The notes beneath the pieces were generated by a model. It was not told the origin of the DNA. It saw only the letters and a list, made by a program, of their open reading frames with translations, and searched no databases. Made by a program: the position numbers and the translations under genes. From a virus (taxonomy: Duplodnaviria > Heunggongvirae > Uroviricota > Caudoviricetes): a stretch of DNA of 12,103 nt. The stretch is from IMG/VR virus record IMGVR_UViG_2617270939_000001. One strand, written 5' to 3'. Of this stretch, positions 1 to 12,103 are shown piece after piece (the stretch's first letter is position 1; each line of letters opens with the position of its first letter).

Positions 1-486
1 CGTAAGCTGCATCTCGCCGTTGACAGTAAAACACATGAAATCATCTGCGCTGACCTGTCGCTGAACAACGTTACGGACTCAGAGGCCTTCCCCGGGTTAA
101 TCCGGCAGACTCACAGAAAAATCAGGGCAGCATCGGCAGACGGCGCTTACGACACCCGGCTCTGTCACGATGAACTGCGGCGTAAGAAAATCAGCGCGCT
201 TATCCCGCCCCGAAAAGGCGCGGGTTACTGGCCCGGTGAATATGCAGACCGTAACCGTGCTGTTGCGAATCAGCGGCTGACCGGGAGTAATGCGCGGTGG
301 AAATGGACAACAGATTATAACCGTCGCTCGATAGCGGAAACGGCGATGTACCGGGTAAAACAGCTGTTCGGAGGTTCACTGACACTGCGTGACTACGATG
401 GTCAGGTTGCAGAGGCTATGGCCCTGGTACGAGCGCTGAACAAAATGACGAAAGCAGGTATGCCTGAAAGCGTGCGTATTGCCTGA
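1..486 (+). CDS. IS903-group DDE transposase, C-terminal 161 codons (5' partial at window edge)
   Basis: Open frame from base 1 to TGA at 484-486. Not in the ORF track because it has no start inside the window. Protein is typical of IS5/IS903 transposase C-termini. Confidence 0.8.
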   Translation, partial: RKLHLAVDSKTHEIICADLSLNNVTDSEAFPGLIRQTHRKIRAASADGAYDTRLCHDELRRKKISALIPPRKGAGYWPGEYADRNRAVANQRLTGSNARWKWTTDYNRRSIAETAMYRVKQLFGGSLTLRDYDGQVAEAMALVRALNKMTKAGMPESVRIA

Positions 487-524
487 AAACACAACCCGCT
501 ACGGGGGAGACTTACCCGAAATCT

Positions 525-542
525 GATTTATTCAACAAAGCC
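525..542. repeat. IS903-type terminal inverted repeat (right end)
   Basis: Matches the reverse complement of GGCTTTGTTGAATAAATC, positioned just after the transposase stop. Confidence 0.7.
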
Positions 543-652
543 ACGCATTCGTTTATTTTCGAACGTGTACATACAAATATGCACAAAAATAATCAAAATT
601 ATTTTCTGAGATGCATTATGATATGAACACCAATTTCGTATAGAGTCTCACT

Positions 653-1243
653 ATGTCTCGAATTTTTGCTTACTGTCGGATATCAACGCTGGATCAGACC
701 ACCGAAAATCAACGCCGGGAAATCGAAAGTGCAGGTTTTAAAATCAAACCTCAGCAAATAATCGAAGAACACATTAGCGGCTCAGCAGCAACCAGTGAGC
801 GTCCTGGTTTTAACCGGTTGCTTGCTCGCCTGAAATGTGGTGATCAATTGATTGTGACAAAACTGGATCGCCTTGGTTGTAATGCAATGGATATCAGGAA
901 AACAGTGGAACAACTGACCGAAACAGGTATCAGAGTGCATTGCTTAGCATTGGGGGGCATTGACCTGACCAGTCCAACAGGAAAAATGATGATGCAAGTA
1001 ATTTCAGCAGTCGCTGAATTTGAACGAGACCTTTTACTTGAACGCACTCATTCCGGGATAGTAAGAGCCCGGGGCGCAGGGAAACGTTTTGGTAGACCAC
1101 CTGTGTTAAATGAAGAACAGAAACAGGTGGTATTCGAACGAATTAAGTCAGGTGTAAGTATAAGTGCCATTGCCCGGGAATTCAAAACCTCGCGGCAAAC
1201 CATTTTAAGAGCCAAAGCAAAACTTCAGACACCTGACATATAA
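653..1243 (+). CDS. pin: Serine recombinase / DNA invertase of the Pin/Gin/Hin/Cin family, 196 aa, apparently intact
   Basis: N-terminal catalytic motif YCRISTLDQ with the active-site Ser; C-terminal HTH ([16 protein letters not shown]). Length and sequence agree with PinQ/PinR of K-12 cryptic prophages as I remember them. Confidence 0.9.
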
Positions 1244-1340
1244 AAAATAATCTCGGTGTGAGATGCTTTACGTCTTCCAAGCCACCTTCCTTGCCGTAAA
1301 TGGAAAGATACATCTAATTATAGAATTTATATGTTTTACC

Positions 1341-1916
1341 CTACGGCAGTGCTGGCCATTCAATATCCTGTGCAGTTGACGTATCAACACGGTTCAGCAA
1401 TACCCGATACTTTTTCCATGCTTCCAGCAACGAGATTTCTTCCTCCGTTGCAATTTCCAGATCTGCAGCATCCTGAAGCGGCGCAATATGCTCACTGGCT
1501 ACCTGCATCAGGCTGTTTTTTGTTTCTTCCGCCTCCCGGATCCGGAACAGTTTTTCTGCTTCCGTATCCTTCACCCAGGCTGTGCCGTTCCACTTCTGAT
1601 ATTCCCCTCCCGGCGATAACCAGGTAACATTTTCCGGTAACGGACCGAGTTCAGAAATAAATAACGCGTCGCCGGAAGCCACGTCATAAACCGTTTTACC
1701 CCGATGATCTTCAACGAGATGCCACGATGCCTCATCACTGTTGAAAACAGCCACGAAGCCTGCCGGAATATCTGGCGGTGCAATATCGGTACTGTTTGCT
1801 GGCAGACCTGTATGAGGCGGAATATATGCGTCACCTTCACCAATAAATTCATTAGTTCCGGCCAGCAGATTATAAATTTTTATGGTCCGTGGTTGTTCAC
1901 TCATTCTGAATGCCAT
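1341..1916 (-). CDS. tfa: Tail fibre assembly protein (Tfa), 191 aa
   Basis: Its start codon (1914-1916) shares one base with the stf stop (1916-1918), TAATG on the coding strand. Protein is TfaQ/TfaR-like. Convergent with pin, as in Rac and Qin. Confidence 0.85.
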
Positions 1917-3904
1917 TATGCAAGCCTCACAATATAGTTAAATGCGATGTTTTTGACGGTGTTTTCCGCGTTACCAGCAGCGTTAACGGTGATGGTATGT
2001 CCATGTGAACCAATCGCAACGGAGTGCGTATGAGCACCAATACCGACAGTATGTGCGTGTGCACCTGCGCTTGCAGCAGTACCCGATACAGAGTGCGTAT
2101 GAGCGCCTGCAGAAGAAGTGTTAACACTGTATTTAGAATAATCAGGTGATCCACTTCCCGGAGCACCACTGGAACCACCTGAAACAAATGTCATCGAATG
2201 GGTATGTGCACCGGCTGAAGCAGCCGTACCGCTAACACTATGGGTATGCGCACCAGTGTTATTCGTGGATTTAGTGCCGTAATCAAACGACGATGTGGTT
2301 TTCGTCCCCAAATCCGTACTGGATACGCTGGCGCTGTGGGTGTGTGATTTAATGCCGTCCTGTTCCTGAGACAATACGGCTCGATCACTGGCGGGCTTGC
2401 CCTTAATCGTCCAGCCACGCATATCAGGGATCACGCCTGACGGATAAGCGGCTGCAAGTTTCGGGTAAGCAGATTTGTCAAAAGTCTGCCCCTGCATCAG
2501 GGCATAACCAGACGGAACGGTATCTGATGGCCACGGGATTGGTGCGCCGACTGGATAAAACTCTGCAGGAGGATGAGCCGAGGTGTAAAGCTGCGCCCAC
2601 GGCGACCAGTTTGCGTCGGTCGTATCCCGTCGTGAACGAATAAATGCCGGAGCATGATCGCCGCTGGTTCCACTCCAGCCAATAAGTAACTCACCCTCTC
2701 CTACTGCGGTTACACCAGTGAGATGAAGCACATTACCATAGGTTGTTGGGTAGCCATTGTTGTATGCCTCATACATCTGAATGCCTGGTGTACCCTTTGC
2801 GCTCCCACTTAATGCCGTAACACGGTTTCTGGATACTAACGTATTAATATTTATATCGCTGGAACCATCAAATTTAACTCCATTTATATTTATCGCATTT
2901 TGTAACTTGGTTGCTGTCAATGCGTTACCGTTCAGACTTGCGGACAGTTTGGTTCCAATAACCAGTTCGCCGGTTGCGTTATCAATAGCAAACGGTCTTA
3001 ATGTATTCCAGCCACCATAAACATCACCTTGATTGGTAAGCAGCAGGTAAGTTTTAGCGCCATCATTACGCCATAATGCACCATACTCCCCACCTATCAT
3101 TCGAATCTGATTACCACCACGCGCTACAATTTCGTCTGTGGCAAAAAGTTTTTTGCACGACAAGTTATCGTTAACGATTAACGAATGAGACTCATAAAAA
3201 CCACGCCCACTCTTAAAATCAAGGATAACGTCCGCCGCGATACATTCAGTCGCCGGATTTGTTGCCCCAAACTTATAGGTCGTATCATTAACAACGAGAT
3301 CAGCACCAGGTGCGGATATTGACAGGCCATCTTCGATAAACGCAAAAACAGGGAAAGCAGCGCCATCAACATAGAACACAGAGCGCAAATCATCGCCCTT
3401 ATTACTCATCATTATTGAGTGGATGGCTCGTTCATTGTTTTGATATTGCCAGAACATTCCATAAGCATAACGCCCCCTGTCAGTCCAGCCACCAGGCATA
3501 ACAAATCCGTTAAACTCGCAGTTATTCATCGGATCGCCTGCGGTTCGCGTTGCCGTGGTGATAATGACCCTTGATGCCAGTTCGCTTACTGAGCCAGCAG
3601 AACGCATAACAGCAACAGGGTAATATTTTCCAGATGTTGCACCTGCAGGAGCGTTAACCCGCACATAACGCATACCACGCTTATCAGCAAAGTCTGTTTT
3701 ACTGACCGCGTTAATGTTGTTCAGGAAGCGTCCCTTATCGGGTATATCAGCGCCGTTCTGGTCTTTCTGCAGACGTTTCTCTGCATTGTCATAGGCTGCT
3801 TTTACTGCCTTTGGCGTTGCCGCCAGCGTTTCAGACGTGCTGTTGGTCGCACTGCTGAGCTGTACTATCCCCTTTTTCGTCGTGCTCGCATCCTCAAGCG
3901 CCAC
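1916..3904 (-). CDS. stf: Side tail fibre protein (Stf), C-terminal portion only; the frame is open up to about 4294 but has no ATG, and homology to lambda Stf begins about 4230
   Basis: Translation matches the lambda Stf middle and C-terminus ([35 protein letters not shown] … [14 protein letters not shown] … [31 protein letters not shown]). Upstream in the same frame (3905-4230) is the Ala/Ser/Thr-rich repeat typical of Stf. The 3904 start in the ORF track is a GTG (Val in SAVALED), not a true start. Confidence 0.8.
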
Positions 3905-4665
3905 GGCGGATGCAATATCCTCTGCCCGTTTTGCTGCTGTCTCGGCGCGCGTTGCCGCGGATTCCGCCGTACTTTTGCTCTGAGCTGCCGCCGTCGCACT
4001 GCCAGCTGCCTCTGTCGCCTTCGTGGATGCCGTCGTGGCGCTGCCCTTCGCTGCTGACGCCTGTCTGGTCGCCTCATCTTTTGAAGCAGACGCCGATGAT
4101 GCCGATGACGCCGCCGAACTGGCGGACGATGCCGCTGCCGTTTTTGAGGATTCTGCACGGGTTTCCGACGCTTTCGCGTTCGTTTCGGATGTCTTCGCTG
4201 CGGAAGCTGACCTCGCTGCTGCACTGGCCTGTTTTCCAGTTCCGGAAAACGCCGCTGCACCGACAGGGGGATCCCGTCGAGAATACTGGCAATTTCACCT
4301 GCGATCCGCGACAGCACGAAAGTACAGAATGCGGTTTCCACCACTTCAGCGGAGTCTCTGGCATTTTTCAGCTCCTGTGCGTCGGCCTGCGCACGCGTAA
4401 GTCGATGGCGTTCGTACTCAATAGTCCCTGGCTGGAGATCTGTCTCGCTGGCCCGCCGCAGTTCTTCAACTTCCCGGCGCAGCTTTTCGTTCTCAATTTC
4501 AGCATCCCTTTCGGCATACCATCTTATAACGGCGGCAGAGTCATAAAGCACCTCATTACCCTTGCCACCGCCTCGCAGAACGGGCATTCCCTGTTCCTGC
4601 CAGTTCTGAATGGTACGGATACTCGCACCGAAAATGTCAGCCAGCTGCTTTTTGTTGACTTCCAT
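3865..4665 (-). CDS. nohA: Terminase small subunit Nu1 homologue (NohA-like): 146 N-terminal codons are Nu1, then about 120 codons of out-of-frame stf DNA (deletion fusion, probably non-functional)
   Basis: First 146 aa ([29 protein letters not shown]…[12 protein letters not shown]) are nearly identical to lambda Nu1, including the wHTH. After codon 146 (about 4230) the protein becomes an Arg/Pro/Gln-rich tail, which is the Ala-rich stf repeat DNA read in the wrong frame. Confidence 0.8.
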
Positions 4666-4900
4666 TGTTCATTCCACGGCCAAAAACAGAGAAAGGAAAC
4701 GACAGAGGCCCAAAAGTTCGTTTTCAGCACCTGTCGTTTCCTTTCTTTTCAGGGGGTATTTTAAATAAAAACATTAAGTTACGACGAAGAAGAACGGAAA
4801 CGCCTTAAACCGGAAAATTTTCATAAATAGCGAAAACCCGCGAGGTCGCCGCCCCGTAACCTGTCGGATCGCCGGAAAGGACCCGCAAAATGATAATAAT
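4666..4900 (-). other. Intact lambda-type cohesive-end site: cosB (between Nu1 start and cosN), cosN (4843-4854), cosQ side (about 4855-4895)
   Basis: The minus strand reads …CCGACAGGTTACG|GGGCGGCGACCTCGCGGGTTTTCGCTATTTATGAAAATTTTCCGGTTTAAGGCG…, which is the lambda right end joined to the lambda left end with the 12-nt cohesive sequence GGGCGGCGACCT, directly upstream of the Nu1 start (ATG 4665-4663). Confidence 0.85.
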
Positions 4901-5053
4901 TATCATCTACATGTCACAACGTGCATCTACGCCATCAAACCACGTCAAATAATCAATTATGACGCAGGTATCGTATTAATTGATCTGCATCAACTTAACG
5001 TAAAAACAACTTCAGACAATACAAATCAGCGACACTGAATACGGGACAACCTC

Positions 5054-5287
5054 ATGTCAACGAAGAACAGAACCCGCAGAACAACAACCCGCAACATCCG
5101 CTTTCCTAACCAAATGATTGAACAAATTAACATCGCTCTTGAGCAAAAAGGGTCCGGGAATTTCTCAGCCTGGGTCATTGAAGCCTGCCGCCGGAGACTG
5201 TGCTCAGAAAAAAGAGTTTCTTCTGAAGCAAACAAAGAAAAGAGTGACATTACTGAATTGCTCAGAAAACAGGTCAGACCAGATTGA
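5054..5287 (+). CDS. Small basic protein, 77 aa, predicted ribbon-helix-helix DNA-binding fold (YnfO-like by position)
   Basis: Basic N-terminus (KNRTRRTTTRN), then a beta-strand-like IRFPNQ and two helices (MIEQINIALEQ / FSAWVIEACRRRL), resembling Arc/MetJ/CopG-type RHH proteins. Lies between cos and ydfO, where ynfO sits in K-12 Qin. Confidence 0.6.
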   Translation: MSTKNRTRRTTTRNIRFPNQMIEQINIALEQKGSGNFSAWVIEACRRRLCSEKRVSSEANKEKSDITELLRKQVRPD

Positions 5288-5344
5288 AGCAATTTAGATA
5301 ATCGTGCAGACTACGCCCCCTCATATCACATGGAAGGTTTATCT

Positions 5345-5755
5345 ATGGATCAGGTAGTCATTTTTAAACAAATATTTGATAAAGTTCGAAACGATTTAAA
5401 CTATCAATGGTTTTATTCTGAGCTAAAACGTCACAATGTCTCACATTACATTTACTATTTAGCCACAGAGAATGTTCATATTGTATTAAAAAATGATAAT
5501 ACAGTGTTATTAAAGGGCCTAAAAAACATTGTGTCTGTCAAATTTTCAAAGGATAGGCATCTTATAGAAACGACCTCTAATAAGCTGAAATCCAGAGAGA
5601 TCACATTTCAGGAATACAGAAGAAACCTTGCTAAAGCAGGAGTTTTTCGGTGGGTTACAAATATCCACGAACAAAAAAGATATTACTATACCTTTGATAA
5701 TTCATTACTATTTACTGAAAGCATCCAGAAAACTACACAGATCTTACCACGCTAA
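5345..5755 (+). CDS. ydfO: DUF1398-family prophage protein YdfO-like, 136 aa (the ORF track begins at an upstream ATG, 5330)
   Basis: A GGAAGG Shine-Dalgarno lies 7 nt before ATG 5345. Sequence and length agree with K-12 YdfO as I recall it. Confidence 0.7.
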
Positions 5756-5857
5756 ACCATAACGTCCGGCTTCTCTCACTCCTGAGCCGGACTGCATTGG
5801 TTTAATAAAAACCATCAACAATTGTGATTTAGATATTCGGAACCATTCAAATATAAC

Positions 5858-5880
5858 AAAACCCCGTAAAAACGAGGTTT
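5858..5880. terminator. Candidate bidirectional rho-independent terminator between ydfO (+) and gnsB (-)
   Basis: Imperfect hairpin AAACCcCG-taaaaa-CGaGGTTT with T-rich flanks on both strands. Stem has a mismatch. Confidence 0.35.
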
Positions 5881-5906
5881 ATGGATAAATTTTATTATTG
5901 AATACA

Positions 5907-6080
5907 TCAGATTAAATTAATCTTGACATCATAGCTTTCAAGACCCGTCATTTTTTCCCGTGCGGTAAACTGAATACTGGTAACTTCTTTCCCGGTCTTT
6001 TTCTTAAGTTCAATAATTTTTTTTGTTATATATTCAGAAATATCTGCTTCTGCTTTTGTTTTTAAGTTTTCAATATTCAT
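5907..6080 (-). CDS. gnsB: GnsB, 57 aa; absent from the ORF track because it is under 60 aa
   Basis: Manual reverse-complement translation gives MNIENLKTKAEADISEYITKKIIELKKKTGKEVTSIQFTAREKMTGLESYDVKINLI, stop TGA at 5907-5909. AAGAGGAAATG precedes the start (tandem ATGs at 6083 and 6080). Confidence 0.8.
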   Translation of the reverse strand: MNIENLKTKAEADISEYITKKIIELKKKTGKEVTSIQFTAREKMTGLESYDVKINLI

Positions 6081-6251
6081 CATTTCCTCTTTTAGTCTGT
6101 TATGACTTTCCAGTTACACAGTAAGTCGATTATATGGTGCAAACGTGTAAAAGATAAGATGAAACATCGCAATAATCAACATACGATAGTCTAAATTTTA
6201 CACAAACAGACAAAGAGAATTTTCCTGAATTATCAATGCAATAGCATCAAA

Positions 6252-6482
6252 TCAACTCAAGAGCCTTATTGCTGCTTCCAGAATTTCTTCTGAAGTAACA
6301 TGTCGATCCGCGGCTACATAAATGACTTTATGATCTCCGGTCAGAGATGGAAACCCTGCGGCCATTACAGTAAGGTGTGTTTTTTCGCCATTTGGATATT
6401 CACGCATGATGGTGTTAACTCCAGTCATCGCTGGCACTACCACTGCTGGTTCAGAGTTAAAAAAAACTATGATTTTTTTCAT
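6252..6482 (-). CDS. Small hypothetical protein, 76 aa from MKKIIVFF (track ORF extends to a further upstream ATG at 6524); at the position of the cold-shock-induced ynfN in Qin
   Basis: Clean ORF in the AT-rich cargo block, same strand as the flanking gnsB and cspI. Start is ambiguous and the SD is weak. I do not recognise the sequence with confidence. Confidence 0.5.
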   Translation of the reverse strand: MKKIIVFFNSEPAVVVPAMTGVNTIMREYPNGEKTHLTVMAAGFPSLTGDHKVIYVAADRHVTSEEILEAAIRLLS

Positions 6483-6523
6483 GATGTTACCGTAGTATGT
6501 GAGTATCCATCGAATAGACACCA

Positions 6524-6560
6524 AGCAAAAAAGCTCCCGAAGGAGCCTTCATTTTCACTT
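6524..6560. terminator. Candidate terminator/attenuator hairpin between cspI and the downstream small ORF
   Basis: GCTCC-cgaa-GGAGC, a 5-bp GC stem with a GNRA-like loop, flanked by an A run (6524-6532) and T-rich sequence (6551-6565). Stem is short. Confidence 0.3.
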
Positions 6561-6753
6561 TTTTAAATCCAACGACAGACGGCTGGCATTTAAGTATTGT
6601 GAAATATTATCAAATGTAATCATCATTGATTTACAAAAGATACATTTTGCCCCGAAAGGATTCATGTCAGAAACATCAAAAGATGATGTTCTATACTGGG
6701 AACCATGACAACACGGGCATCTAAAGTGAATATGGTTTGTAATATTGTCTACC

Positions 6754-6966
6754 TCAAAGCGCCACTACATGAACAGCGGCAGGACCTTTAGGTCCGTTCT
6801 CAATACCAAATTCAACTTCCTGATTCTCAGTTAATGTTTTGAAATCGTTGCTCTGAATTGCTGAGAAATGGACAAACACATCTTTGCTGCCATCTTTCGG
6901 CGTGATGAAACCAAAACCTTTTTCAGGGTTAAACCATTTCACTAAACCAGTCATTTTGTTAGACAT
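6754..6966 (-). CDS. cspI: Cold-shock protein CspI (CspA family), 70 aa
   Basis: [70 protein letters not shown] carries RNP1 (KGFGFI) and RNP2 (VFVHF). Confidence 0.9.
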
Positions 6967-7098
6967 AATTATTACCTTTTGAAGAAATTAGCCCTTGGGC
7001 AGAATGGTCCGAAAAAAAATATCAGAGAGAAAAACCAACAAGGAAATCTCAAGAGGTACAAATAATAAAATTATAACAATGACTGCTTCAGATAAATT

Positions 7099-7146
7099 TG
7101 TAACAAACCAGAACACCATTAACGCATGATTAACCACCCATAGCAA
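7099..7146 (-). promoter_or_regulatory. Predicted cspI promoter (-35 TTGCTA 7146-7141, 17-bp spacer, -10 GTTAAT 7123-7118) and cold-box-like 5' UTR start (GGTTTGTTACA, 7109-7099)
   Basis: Same layout as the cspB promoter in this window, and similar to the cspA promoter (TTGCAT/CTTAAT) followed by a GGTTTGACGTACAGAC cold box, as I recall it. Predicted 5' UTR about 144 nt. Confidence 0.45.
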
Positions 7147-7328
7147 GGATTACTTTTGTAAAGAAAAACACAGCAATGAAAGAATAGCTTTATTTATTAA
7201 TAAAACGTGTCATTCTGATTAAGACCTTTTATCTTACCCTTAAGATTTCAGGAATTTTGGCTCATGGAAGAGTCCTTTTTATTTAAATTTTACATTCCGC
7301 GATGTAAATGTTCCGATTTAATATTACC

Positions 7329-8662
<1,334 letters not shown>

Positions 8663-8666
8663 TGGA

Positions 8667-8882
8667 TTATTCTCCTCTCGCAGCCTTACGCCTGTCTTCT
8701 TTAATCTTGAAATAAAGATTTGTCAGATACGTCAGCAGGCCAAAAACCAGGCTACCCAGCACACCGATTGCAGCCCACTGTGACGGAGTTACTTTATCGA
8801 GTAACTGCAATGCCCAGAAACCAGCATTACCCGCCGATGTGCCATAGGCAACACCTGTTGTTAACTTATCCATTGATTTCAT
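8667..8882 (-). CDS. essQ: Class II holin / pinholin, phage 21 S-like, 71 aa, with dual-start motif MKSM
   Basis: [71 protein letters not shown] has two TM segments and is very similar to S21 as I recall it. GGTGAGGAT SD before ATG 8882. The track ORF's 25-codon upstream extension is not supported. Confidence 0.85.
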
Positions 8883-9101
8883 ATCCTCACCCCGATGTAC
8901 ACGGATGGTGCAATATGTTTGAAAAGATCGGAGTCTACGGGGTAGTTTTGACAGCACACGTTGTTCTCAACGGCGCTAAAAAAACATACACATTAAAAAT
9001 GTGGGTAATTATTTTGAAAGAAAGTCATATATAAAATAATAATACGAGAAATGTTTTCATATTTAGTGTACTGTATACGGCCATTTATACAGGAAAAGCC
9101 T

Positions 9102-9272
9102 ATGTCAGAACGTAAAGACTCAAAATCACGCCGTAATTATCTCGTTAAATGTTCCTGCCCAAACTGCACCCAAGAGTCAGAACACAGTTTTTCAAGAGTA
9201 CAGAAAGGTGCCCTTTTGATCTGCCCTCATTGCAACAAAGTATTCCAGACAAATCTTAAAGCTGTAGCCTGA
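9102..9272 (+). CDS. Small zinc-ribbon protein, 56 aa, of the kind described as YnfQ/YmcF-type small proteins next to csp genes
   Basis: AGGAAAA SD before ATG 9102. Two CxxC pairs (CSCPNC … CPHC). Antisense to the late lysis operon. The upstream part of the track ORF (from 9051) lacks an SD. Confidence 0.6.
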   Translation: MSERKDSKSRRNYLVKCSCPNCTQESEHSFSRVQKGALLICPHCNKVFQTNLKAVA

Positions 9273-9327
9273 TTGATTTTATTAGTAACAAGTATTTTTT
9301 ATATTTTAATAATATATTTAAAGCAGA

Positions 9328-9354
9328 TAATAAAAAACCCGCCTGAGCGGGTTT
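9328..9354 (-). terminator. Rho-independent terminator acting on the minus strand (downstream of cspB)
   Basis: Perfect 8-bp stem AAACCCGC-ctga-GCGGGTTT (9335-9354), followed on the minus-strand transcript by a U run (plus-strand A run 9328-9337). Confidence 0.7.
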
Positions 9355-9635
9355 GAGATTGTGGTGCTTTTTGTGGGAGTCATCCACTTACGCACTTTGT
9401 TTTGCGATGCCAGCAGTTAGCTTCTGCTGTGAAACTATTCATGCAGCAAACCTGCACTTCACCACAATGGTTAGCATACTTTTCCTGATTAAGATTTTGC
9501 CAAATATGCTGGCCATTGTTTCATGTATTGGACCTCCTTACTTTTTATTAAAGAGATCCAATATTCACTACTCTGTCCGTATCTCTACTCAGGCATCAGC
9601 CTTCTTCGTTATCGTATACAGACGAGCGATGAATT

Positions 9636-9851
9636 TTAATCAGTAATGATGACATTTGCTGCTGCAGGACCTTTAGCACCACTCTCTATAGAGAAGGTAA
9701 CCTTTTGACCTTCAAATAAGGTTCGATAATTATCATTCTGAATCGCAGAAAAATGCACAAACACATCTTTACTACCATCAACAGGAGAAATAAAGCCGAA
9801 ACCTTTATCAGCGTTAAACCATTTTACTAAACCAGTCATTTTATTTGACAT
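9636..9851 (-). CDS. cspB: Cold-shock protein CspB (CspA family), 71 aa
   Basis: [67 protein letters not shown]… with RNP1 and RNP2 motifs. AAGGAA SD. Confidence 0.9.
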
Positions 9852-9993
9852 TCTACATTCCTTAACTTGAGCCTTTCGGCATAAATGGTTTGCATAACAG
9901 AAACGACTTCGTACTTAATTGGAGAGACTCAAAGAAGGAATAAGTGAATAACACCTGAAATGAGAACTGCTTTAGTAAACTACTTCGTATATC

Positions 9994-10047
9994 GTCTGTT
10001 CTTCAAACCGACGCAGTCATTAACTCATAGTTGAACATATGAAGCAA
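9994..10047 (-). promoter_or_regulatory. Predicted cspB promoter (-35 TTGCTT 10047-10042, 17-bp spacer, -10 GTTAAT 10024-10019) and cold box at the 5' UTR start (CGGTTTGAAGAACAGAC, about 10010-9994)
   Basis: Minus strand reads TTGCTT-n17-GTTAAT-gactgcgt-CGGTTTGAAGAACAGACGA…AAAGCAG, closely paralleling the cspA promoter and cold box as I recall them. Predicted 5' UTR about 159 nt (10010 to 9852). Confidence 0.55.
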
Positions 10048-10149
10048 TGTTTATTTTAGACATCCAGCCACCTTCAACCCTATCAAAAAAGTAGTTTTCT
10101 CCAGGAACGTGTGTATGGTGCACCAGGTTATCAGTATTAAGGAGTTTTT

Positions 10150-10358
10150 CTGTCCCCTAAAATGACAGGAATTGTCAAAAACTTTGACTACAAAAGCAGC
10201 AAAGGTCTTATATTCCCATCCGATGGCGTATCGATGCCCAGCTTCACGTTTCAGCTCTCAATCTTCGAGATGCAGAAGAAATTACCACAGGATTACGCGT
10301 GGAATTTTGCCGGATAAATGGTTCGCATGGACCTTCAACTGCCAATGTTTATCCCGGG
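10150..10358 (+). pseudogene. cspF: cspF-like cold-shock gene remnant: start codon position is CTG, one frameshift, and no stop at the expected end
   Basis: TAAGGAG SD (10138-10144) sits 5 nt before CTG 10150, where ATG is expected. Frame 1 from ATG 10162 gives [22 protein letters not shown], then homology resumes in another frame (…[12 protein letters not shown]…[21 protein letters not shown]) after a one-base loss near 10227. That frame runs on through the terminator. Confidence 0.6.
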
Positions 10359-10395
10359 ATGAGATTCAATATCTCTATTGCCCCATTTAAAGCAC

Positions 10396-10430
10396 AAAAA
10401 CCCGCTTATAAGCGGGTTTTCTACTTTTTT
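10396..10430. terminator. Strong bidirectional rho-independent terminator; candidate tR' of the Q-dependent late transcript
   Basis: Perfect 9-bp stem AAACCCGCT-tata-AGCGGGTTT (10398-10419) with an A run before and a T run after, so U tracts follow the hairpin on both strands. About 110 nt downstream of the Q stop on the minus strand. Confidence 0.75.
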
Positions 10431-10526
10431 CTAAACGTCGGATACACAAAGCCCATCGTTGAGAAAATCTTATCCATGTTTTTTGAAAAATGCAAACATC
10501 ATGTCGCCATCTTCAGCAAAAATCAT

Positions 10527-11279
10527 TTATCTCGTCACCTTCCTCAATTGCGCTTCCGCGTATGCTTCTTCCTGCCAGCACTTTGTTACCAGTTTACCAA
10601 TGACGTCCGCATACCCCTTATACCACTGATAATCGGTCAGGTCTGGTACCAGCTTCTGGACATGACGTCGTGCCAGCGTGGTCGGTAAACGACTAAACCG
10701 GTTTCCATTACAACGCCCACAAATCTTATATACCGGTACGCCATGAAACCGGGTTCTTTTTTCATCCAGAACAATCCCTTTACCCTTACACCCCCTGCAC
10801 GCTGTGCTGACTTCGCCCTTACCATGGCAATGCTGACATAGTTCCTTCACCCATTCTTCCTTGATTACAGATTCCCCGCGTCTGTAGTGTTTCACCACTT
10901 CGCGCAATACATTATAAAATCCCGTACCTGAACAATGCTCACAGCGAGCCTTACTTGCCGCAGACCTGGAGTAATCAGCAAAGGCAAAATTCACAAGGTA
11001 AGGAATAATCTGTAACCGGATTTCTTCACTCAATTTGTTCAATGTCGGGTTATCCAGTGCCATCGCGTAATTTAGCAGGCCTTCAATCGCAAACTGAGGG
11101 TCCTGAACACCAACTTTTGCCAGAAATAAGGCCAACCCAAGTGGTGCTTTCGACTGCACCATCCCCTGCGCTGCCATTACATCCGTAATTGTTAAACAAC
11201 CGGTGCCTGTCGCTGGAGCGTCATCGCTCAATTTTGGAGATTTTGGGGAGTAATATTTTGGTAAGGCTTCAAGGTTCAT
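10527..11279 (-). CDS. quuQ: Late-gene antiterminator Q, 250 aa from [10 protein letters not shown] (the track ORF's 65-codon N-terminal extension overlaps the upstream gene and is rejected)
   Basis: GGAGAA SD before ATG 11279. Four Cys pairs ([30 protein letters not shown]), a zinc-binding pattern. Sequence and length agree with K-12 QuuQ/QuuD-type Q proteins as I recall them. Confidence 0.8.
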
Positions 11280-11292
11280 GCTCGTTCTCCAC

Positions 11293-11836
11293 TTACGCCA
11301 GTACGCCAGTTGCCAGCGCGCGATCGATAAAACGAAATACCAGCTCCAGTTGGGAGCCATACTTCTCTTCAAATGCCACTGTATCCGTATGCAGCTCGTT
11401 GTGATGCTTTCTGCACAAAGGCAACACAAAGAGATCATGTGCTTTTGTTCCCATTCCGCCCTGCCCGTGACCAATCAGATGATGCGGATCGTCGGCTGGC
11501 ATACCGCAGCAAGCACACGGCTGTGTCTTAACCCAACGTGTGTATTTCTCCTTAACCCAGCGGCGACGTTTAGGCAGCTTCATGAAAGATTCCGGAGACT
11601 CTGGATCAACGGTGATGATTACCACCGTCTTTTCCTGTGGTGGTTTTTGTTGCTGGTGGGCGTAAGGCAACGGTGCAAGATTTTTTGTGCGTTGTTTCAA
11701 TATGCTGGTGGCGGTCTGCTCTCCCGGTACGATGTCGCTTTCGCGGTACACCGAGCAGATTTTTTCCGCTGGTAATCCCAGCGAACGACGCGATACAGCC
11801 TCAGGTAGTGCATCCACCTGAATCGCCACGGATAAT
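11293..11836 (-). pseudogene. ydfU: YdfU-like (DUF968) gene, C-terminal part only; N-terminus replaced by an IS3-family insertion
   Basis: C-terminal region carries an HNH-like Cys/His motif (PCACCGMPADDPHHLIGHGQGGMGTKAHDLFVLPLCRKHHNELH) and ends 13 nt before the Q start. Upstream, the same DNA in another frame encodes the end of the transposase, so the first about 40 codons of the track ORF are IS-derived. Exact junction not determined. Confidence 0.55.
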
Positions 11837-12103
11837 CTAGACACTTCCGAGCCGTTGATAATACTGGTTTTCATATTCTGTCGGTGACATCTGTTCGCTA
11901 GAACCATGCCGACGCTTACTGTTATAAAACATTTCGATGTAATCAAAAATATCACTGCGGGCTTCTTCCCGCGTTCCGTAGATCTTTTTCTTTATCCGTT
12001 CACGTTTCAACAACTGGAAAAAACTTTCTGCAACCGCATTATCATGGCAGTTACCGCGACGGCTCATGCTACCCTCCAGGCCGTGTGATTTCAGGAACGA
12101 CTG
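11800..12103 (-). mobile_element. IS3-family insertion sequence, right end and 3' part; approximate inner boundary 11800-11836
   Basis: Transposase 3' end at 11837. The terminal inverted repeat could not be identified because the other end is outside the window. Confidence 0.6.
11837..12103 (-). CDS. IS3-family transposase (OrfB, DDE/rve domain), C-terminal 88 codons; gene continues beyond the right edge
   Basis: Minus-strand frame is open from the window edge to TAG at 11837-11839 (…QSFLKSHGLEGSMSRRGNCHDNAVAESFF…SPTEYENQYYQRLGSV). SRRGNC.DNA is the hallmark around the catalytic Glu of IS3-family transposases. Confidence 0.8.
   Translation of the reverse strand, partial: QSFLKSHGLEGSMSRRGNCHDNAVAESFFQLLKRERIKKKIYGTREEARSDIFDYIEMFYNSKRRHGSSEQMSPTEYENQYYQRLGSV

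Follow-up and report, generated by a model that had tools for sequence, protein, structure and literature searches.

The 12,103-nucleotide stretch of DNA analysed here (the window) carries prophage genes between two insertion sequences (IS) and raises the question of what these elements have done to the prophage, in particular whether the left one took the place of the neighboring gene ydfK, or of an invertible segment or crossover site next to the recombinase gene pin, and whether the two elements together form a mobile unit. As argued below, we consider it very probable that the window is a remnant of the late region of prophage Qin at its usual site, which has undergone two independent IS events, one clean and one deletional.

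By a megablast search of its whole length against complete Escherichia coli genomes, the window was identified as what remains of the late region of Qin, a cryptic lambdoid prophage, and at least 80% of it is covered in 401 genomes. The closest genome, NZ_LR536431.1 (referred to as the sister genome), matches window positions 4–12103 at 99.9% identity in one piece, both IS junctions included. Positions at its Qin locus are given with the prefix L001, and those at the Qin locus of K-12 MG1655 with the prefix L002. The annotated order in the sister genome is ydfJ, ynfT, ydfK, an IS5-family transposase gene, pinQ, and tfaQ, continuing to ydfT and a truncated DUF968 gene, after which an IS3-family fragment, IS30, IS3, a transposase fragment, and rspB follow; the segment accordingly lies at the normal Qin locus, between ydfJ and rspB. 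The genes annotated over the match are, from left to right, pinQ, tfaQ, a tail protein gene, a nohA fragment, ynfO, ydfO, gnsB, ynfN, cspI, rzpQ, rrrQ, essD, cspB, cspF, ydfT, and the truncated DUF968 gene (ydfU), in agreement with a Pfam scan of the window's own reading frames. The configuration is already known, being present and annotated in this public complete genome. The Qin segment enclosed by the two IS elements spans 11,276 bp (543–11818), close to the roughly 11 kb of prophage cargo given in a first-pass annotation of the same DNA. The features of the window to which the argument refers are listed below.

1–542, plus strand: right-hand 542 bp (IS positions 516–1057) of an IS903-group (IS5 family) element, assigned by identity, domain, and terminal repeat.
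543–551, no strand: right copy of the target-site duplication ACGCATTCG; the same 9-mer precedes the left IS end in NZ_LR536431.1.
543–652, plus strand: 110-bp remnant of the native ydfK–pinQ spacer, colinear with K-12 from L002 5513.
653–1243, plus strand: pinQ, encoding an intact serine recombinase of 196 amino acids with Resolvase and HTH_7 domains (Pfam, 653–1240); WP_000086527.1 in the sister genome.
1341–1916, minus strand: tfaQ, with a Caudo_TAP domain; annotated in the sister genome and convergent with pinQ.
1916–3904, minus strand: tail-fibre gene of 662 amino acids with Phage_fiber_2, Gp34_trimer, and Collar domains (Pfam, 1919–3904); convergent with pinQ.
11293–11818, minus strand: remnant of ydfU (DUF968), the C-terminal 174 codons and the stop codon; DUF968 match at 11296–11817 (E = 2.5e-68).
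11819–12103, minus strand: terminal 285 bp of ISEhe3 (IS3 family), with the terminus TGAATCGCCACGG... at 11819 and the 3′ end of orfB on the minus strand.

Compared with the part of K-12 Qin from ydfK to ydfU, the window shows the same chromosomal site, the same gene order, and 98–99% identity over most of 543–11818. In contrast to the uninterrupted K-12 spacer, the ydfK–pinQ spacer of the window contains an IS; moreover, ydfU is truncated, and nothing is left of the early region (rem to intQ).

The left element shows 96–98.7% identity over window 1–542 to elements annotated as IS903 or IS903B in 1567 E. coli genomes. It contains the 3′ part of the transposase gene (1–486, stop codon included), which is directed toward pinQ and gives a DDE_Tnp_1 match to the transposase C-terminus in 1–483 (Pfam; E = 2.4e-24; profile positions 36–199 of 200). 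The end of the element at 542 and its distance of 110 bp from pin, both given in the first-pass annotation, are borne out, the former by an 18-bp terminal inverted repeat at 525–542 (the reverse complement of GGCTTTGTTGAATAAATC) and the latter by the pinQ start at 653, which leaves a gap (543–652) of exactly that length. As the first base of the window already belongs to the IS, its left end, the left copy of the duplication, and ydfK are visible only in the sister genome, where the complete copy occupies 1057 bp (L001 7483–8539), the last 542 bp of which are those of the window. The left end of this copy reads GGCTTTGTTGAATAAATC and is identical at 18 of 18 positions to the repeat at window 525–542, and the 9-bp sequence ACGCATTCG stands directly on both sides of the element (left copy, L001 7474–7482). 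A 9-bp target duplication is typical of IS903B (PMC13618097). The junctions, the terminal repeats, and the duplication can thus be read directly, and the element shares with IS903 and IS903B its 1057-bp length (in the sister genome), the perfect terminal repeat, the size of the duplication, and the DDE_Tnp_1 transposase. A search for the left junction in one genome per species gave 0 matches.

The IS entered the 316 bp of AT-rich spacer that separate ydfK from pinQ, at a point 101–110 bp upstream of the pinQ start, and the spacer remnant of the window is included in a 1562-bp match to K-12 (window 543–2104; 98.5% identity). In the alignment with K-12, the left flank extends to L002 5521 and the right one begins at L002 5513, giving an overlap of exactly 9 bp (L002 5513–5521). 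The first-pass annotation looked to such an alignment with K-12 Qin to define the displaced sequence; the overlap reveals no loss on the left. The empty site is also observed directly: when reconstructed from both flanks and one copy of the duplication, it is found at 100% identity in a single piece in many E. coli genomes, and at least 80% of it is present in 2757 of 5426 genomes. Since, in the sister genome, ydfK (L001 7034–7267) is intact 215 bp to the left of a complete IS that is flanked by a 9-bp duplication, the IS903-group element is best read as a simple insertion by which nothing has been deleted or displaced, ydfK and pinQ being intact on either side. The view of the first-pass annotation that the IS stands in place of ydfK is therefore contradicted by the intact gene beside the complete 1057-bp element, and its own caveat, that ydfK might turn out to be intact once the IS boundaries were mapped, proved justified for the left side. 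In the simplest course of events, the IS903-group element would have transposed into the AT-rich 316-bp spacer, and its DDE transposase would have made a staggered 9-bp cut, from which the duplication ACGCATTCG arose.

Other insertions have been found in the same 316-bp spacer. Strain E66 (L008) has an independent IS903-group element at a position corresponding to K-12 L002 5371–5379, with a 9-bp flank overlap, and strains EC21Z-137 (L009) and CT29 have IS1 at L002 5600–5608, also with a 9-bp flank overlap; pinQ of E66 is additionally truncated by another IS1. At least 2757 of the approximately 2806 genomes holding the spacer locus have it essentially uninterrupted or with a small insertion, occupied spacers being rare.

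The displacement proposed in the first-pass annotation extended to an invertible segment or crossover site on this side of pin. In prophage e14 of K-12, one crossover site is located inside stfP and the other 55–80 bp upstream of pinE, so that the upstream side is indeed the right place to look; besides, ydfK is beyond the reach of the window itself. We scanned for two 26-bp sites of the TTNTCNNAAACC NN GGTTTNNGANAA type in inverted orientation, using a consensus that was validated by the scan of e14, in which both known sites (pix) were recovered as a positive control with 1 mismatch each. With up to 3 mismatches allowed, the same scan detected 0 crossover sites of the Hin/Gin/Cin/Pin type, either in the window or in the 28 kb surrounding K-12 Qin, which include the uninterrupted ydfK–pinQ spacer. 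The positional equivalent of the upstream e14 site (window ~573–598) lies downstream of the IS and is preserved. A search of 1–5000 for inverted repeats able to bound an invertible segment returned chance-level pairs and one hairpin at 4690–4746, and no inverted duplicate of tail-fibre sequence was found near pinQ in the same range. With these results, and with ydfK intact beside a clean 9-bp duplication at the same junction in the sister genome, it is exceedingly improbable that the IS903-group element replaced ydfK, an invertible segment, or a crossover site upstream of pin; judged from the sequences compared, no invertible segment or crossover site appears to have been lost through the insertion.

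Qin was also compared with the e14 pin / P-segment system of DNA inversion. Like the recombinase of e14, PinQ is a serine recombinase with Resolvase and HTH_7 domains, and its gene adjoins tail-fibre genes, whereas Qin has neither the 26-bp crossover sites nor a duplicated, inverted tail-fibre segment, and pinQ, rather than following an invertible segment, is oriented convergently with tfaQ. Since PinQ is only 38% identical to PinE of e14, it is probably not a close member of the Hin/Gin/Cin/Pin (Din-type) invertase group. The spacer remnant also contains a promoter-like site at 566–593, detected in a promoter scan, the −10 element of which is overlapped by an AT-rich 26-bp pseudo-palindrome at 583–608 (ACAAAAATAATC AA AATTATTTTCTG). 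The pseudo-palindrome is kept in K-12 with 1 mismatch and corresponds roughly in position to the e14 crossover site upstream of pinE; neither the window nor the sister locus nor K-12 Qin contained a convincing second copy (up to 8 mismatches). Neither this search nor the crossover scan of the window and K-12 Qin yielded a substrate for PinQ. To our knowledge, no PinQ substrate has been described.

A further possibility is that the insertion was functionally selected, in that the IS, with its co-oriented transposase gene in front of pinQ and with the distal 206 bp of upstream DNA separated from it, alters pinQ expression. The transposase gene shares its strand with pinQ, no terminator-like site separates the two, and three independent IS insertions have occurred in the 316-bp spacer in different strains, of the IS903 group at two positions and of IS1 at a third. 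However, the promoter-like site at 566–593 still adjoins pinQ, AT-rich intergenic DNA is a generic target of IS elements, occupied spacers are rare, and PinQ has yielded no substrate. We consider such selection unlikely, and a regulatory role of the insertion is, from what the sequence offers, likewise unlikely. Wider in scope is the idea that the spacer is a recurrent, selected landing site for IS elements, which might rewire the expression of PinQ or of the cold-shock gene ydfK, with 583–608 serving as a putative operator or recombination site of PinQ; this we hold to be distinctly unlikely.

While its site is ordinary, the IS903-group copy itself has a composite sequence. Among 5426 complete E. 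coli genomes, no identical copy was found, the best match being 98.7%. Unlike IS903 and IS903B, the window copy combines IS903B-like with IS903-like stretches in a mosaic: over 1–218 its sequence is that of an IS903B copy (L005), over 100–542 that of the NZ_LR536431.1 copy, and its 14 differences from the latter, mostly at third-codon sites, are all within bases 3–99. The mosaic suggests either gene conversion between IS903 variants or an assembly effect that produced a chimeric sequence. It is conceivable, though less likely, that the element was inserted independently at the very same 9 bp in the source of the window and in the sister genome. An assembly artefact at the left junction or in the IS sequence itself, for example through the collapse or chimerism of a repeat, could be suspected from the mosaic, with its IS903B variant in 1–99 and the sister-genome copy in 100–542, and a 1-bp homopolymer difference at ~8343 hints at sequencing noise in addition. 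An artefact is nevertheless very unlikely, as an independent complete assembly has the identical junction and duplication and agrees with the window at every base from 100 up to the difference at ~8343, and mosaicism among IS903 variants is visible in other copies too. The difference at ~8343 is a 1-bp deletion in a 5-base homopolymer run in codons 4–5 of rrrQ (minus strand), absent from both K-12 and the sister genome, and may be either a homopolymer sequencing error or a real frameshift in the lysozyme gene. A second 1-bp deletion at ~8419, in ydfR, is common to the window and the sister genome, and the two deletions together produce a fused open reading frame of 279 amino acids (7823–8662, minus strand).

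On the right side, the homology of Qin to other E. coli genomes and to K-12 ends at 11818, and the IS terminus is at 11819, one base before the start at about 11820 given for an IS3-family element in the first-pass annotation. The terminal stretch is 99.7–100% identical to full copies of ISEhe3 elsewhere, contains the last 88 codons of OrfB with matches to rve_2/rve_3 (Pfam; 11840–12103, minus strand), and runs colinear with a 1229-bp copy inserted in rbsR of E. coli HS. The HS copy has TG...CA ends, an AAC duplication on both sides, and an annotated programmed frameshift, and proteins identical to its OrfA and OrfB are named ISEhe3 in Shigella flexneri and UniRef records; ISEhe3 is also encountered as a named element in the literature. 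The ends of the element, TG...CA with imperfect inverted repeats, read TGAATCGCCACGGATAATCTAGACAC at window 11819 and ...GTGTCTGTTAAACCCGTGGCGATTCA at the other end, as seen in HS and in L001. With genuine terminal inverted repeats at their junctions, both IS stretches are more than the transposase-like fragments that the first-pass annotation had allowed for, and the boundaries of both elements are now exact to the base. The right element shares with ISEhe3 its near-complete identity to the 1229-bp copies, the TG...CA termini, and the integrase-core C-terminus of OrfB, and differs from the HS rbsR copy in having no 3-bp duplication here and in being interrupted by IS30 and IS3 in the sister genome.

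In the sister genome, ISEhe3 is complete but split by the adjacent IS30 and IS3, forming a nest of three IS elements (L001 19817–23530); its far end is at L001 23530, and its own two ends are 3.7 kb apart. The triplet next to ydfU is ACC and that at the far end AGG, and the 3-bp target-site duplication is accordingly absent. This absence concerns the history of the insertion, namely a deletion; the identity of the element is unaffected by it. Beyond the far end lie 262 bp of a fragmentary AIPR-family (abortive-infection) gene, adjoining rspB; in strain C9, this fragment is separated from the ydfU breakpoint by 2372 bp that contain hokD, rem, and a hypothetical gene. The K-12 homology stops at L002 15781, inside ydfU (L002 15256–16305), the N-terminal half of which has been lost at the IS junction, and the remnant is annotated in the sister genome as a pseudogene missing its N-terminus. 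Relative to K-12, ~9 kb is absent (L002 15782–24761, rem to intQ).

The discontinuity of the flanks is a direct observation, and the flanks by themselves point to a deletion, because a target duplication is lacking and the far flank is a fragment of a distant gene. ISEhe3 lies inside ydfU, its flanks are contiguous in no ancestor and carry no 3-bp duplication, and the IS30 and IS3 insertions within it are located outside the window. As the flanks are non-contiguous and not duplicated, the prophage DNA beyond the middle of ydfU was presumably removed, either by an adjacent deletion associated with ISEhe3 or by recombination between two ISEhe3 copies. We infer this mechanism of deletion, as well as the order of the two IS events.

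The IS-mediated decay that the first-pass annotation considered typical of Shigella-like genomes is thus supported on the right side, where ydfU is cut and flanked by ACC and AGG, while the description as Shigella-like applies only in a loose sense: judged by source names, ISEhe3 occurs commonly in Shigella flexneri, but the genome closest to the window is from an E. coli in which the IS copies number in the tens and not in the hundreds. The other IS ends and the target duplications, expected beyond the window, are mapped in the sister genome, the duplication being 9 bp for the IS903-group element and none being present for ISEhe3 here. Altogether, what was observed in the first-pass annotation is confirmed, and its interpretation is partly supported; a plausible but wrong reading, that ydfK or an invertible segment had been erased, is corrected.

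The presence of IS elements at both ends of the segment could suggest that they and the 11.3 kb between them constitute a mobile composite unit. This has virtually no chance of being correct: the elements belong to different families (IS5 versus IS3) with unrelated ends and transposases, the segment is found where Qin normally resides, between ydfJ and rspB, and each element is accounted for separately, the IS903-group element by its own 9-bp duplication and ISEhe3 by both of its own ends lying 3.7 kb apart. A composite transposon was accordingly rejected on family identity and chromosomal context, in keeping with the first-pass annotation, which had ruled one out for two unrelated families (here the IS903 group of IS5, and ISEhe3 of IS3). 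In the preferred reading of two independent events, the IS elements represent ordinary, routine prophage decay, and the locus sets a clean IS insertion with a target duplication against an IS-associated deletion without one, in a single decaying prophage.

Several minor differences and features were noted within the enclosed Qin segment. In the tail-fibre region (2105–4230), 2126 bp of the window stand for 859 bp of K-12, and the 662-residue tail-fibre reading frame (1916–3904) contrasts with the 320-residue StfQ of K-12 Qin. K-12 shares the nohA-side breakpoint of the large deletion in the late operon (window 4231), and the full 20-kb operon from terminase to tail is kept in strain C9. A 258-bp deletion relative to K-12 at 10351/10352, by which the 3′ end of cspF and ynfS are gone, recurs in the sister genome, whose annotation gives cspF as a pseudogene. 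Finally, Rfam matches were obtained to IS009 inside tfaQ (1375–1573, minus strand) and to cspA-type thermoregulator leaders upstream of cspI and cspB (6727–7112 and 9620–10012, both on the minus strand), all of which are expected for Qin.
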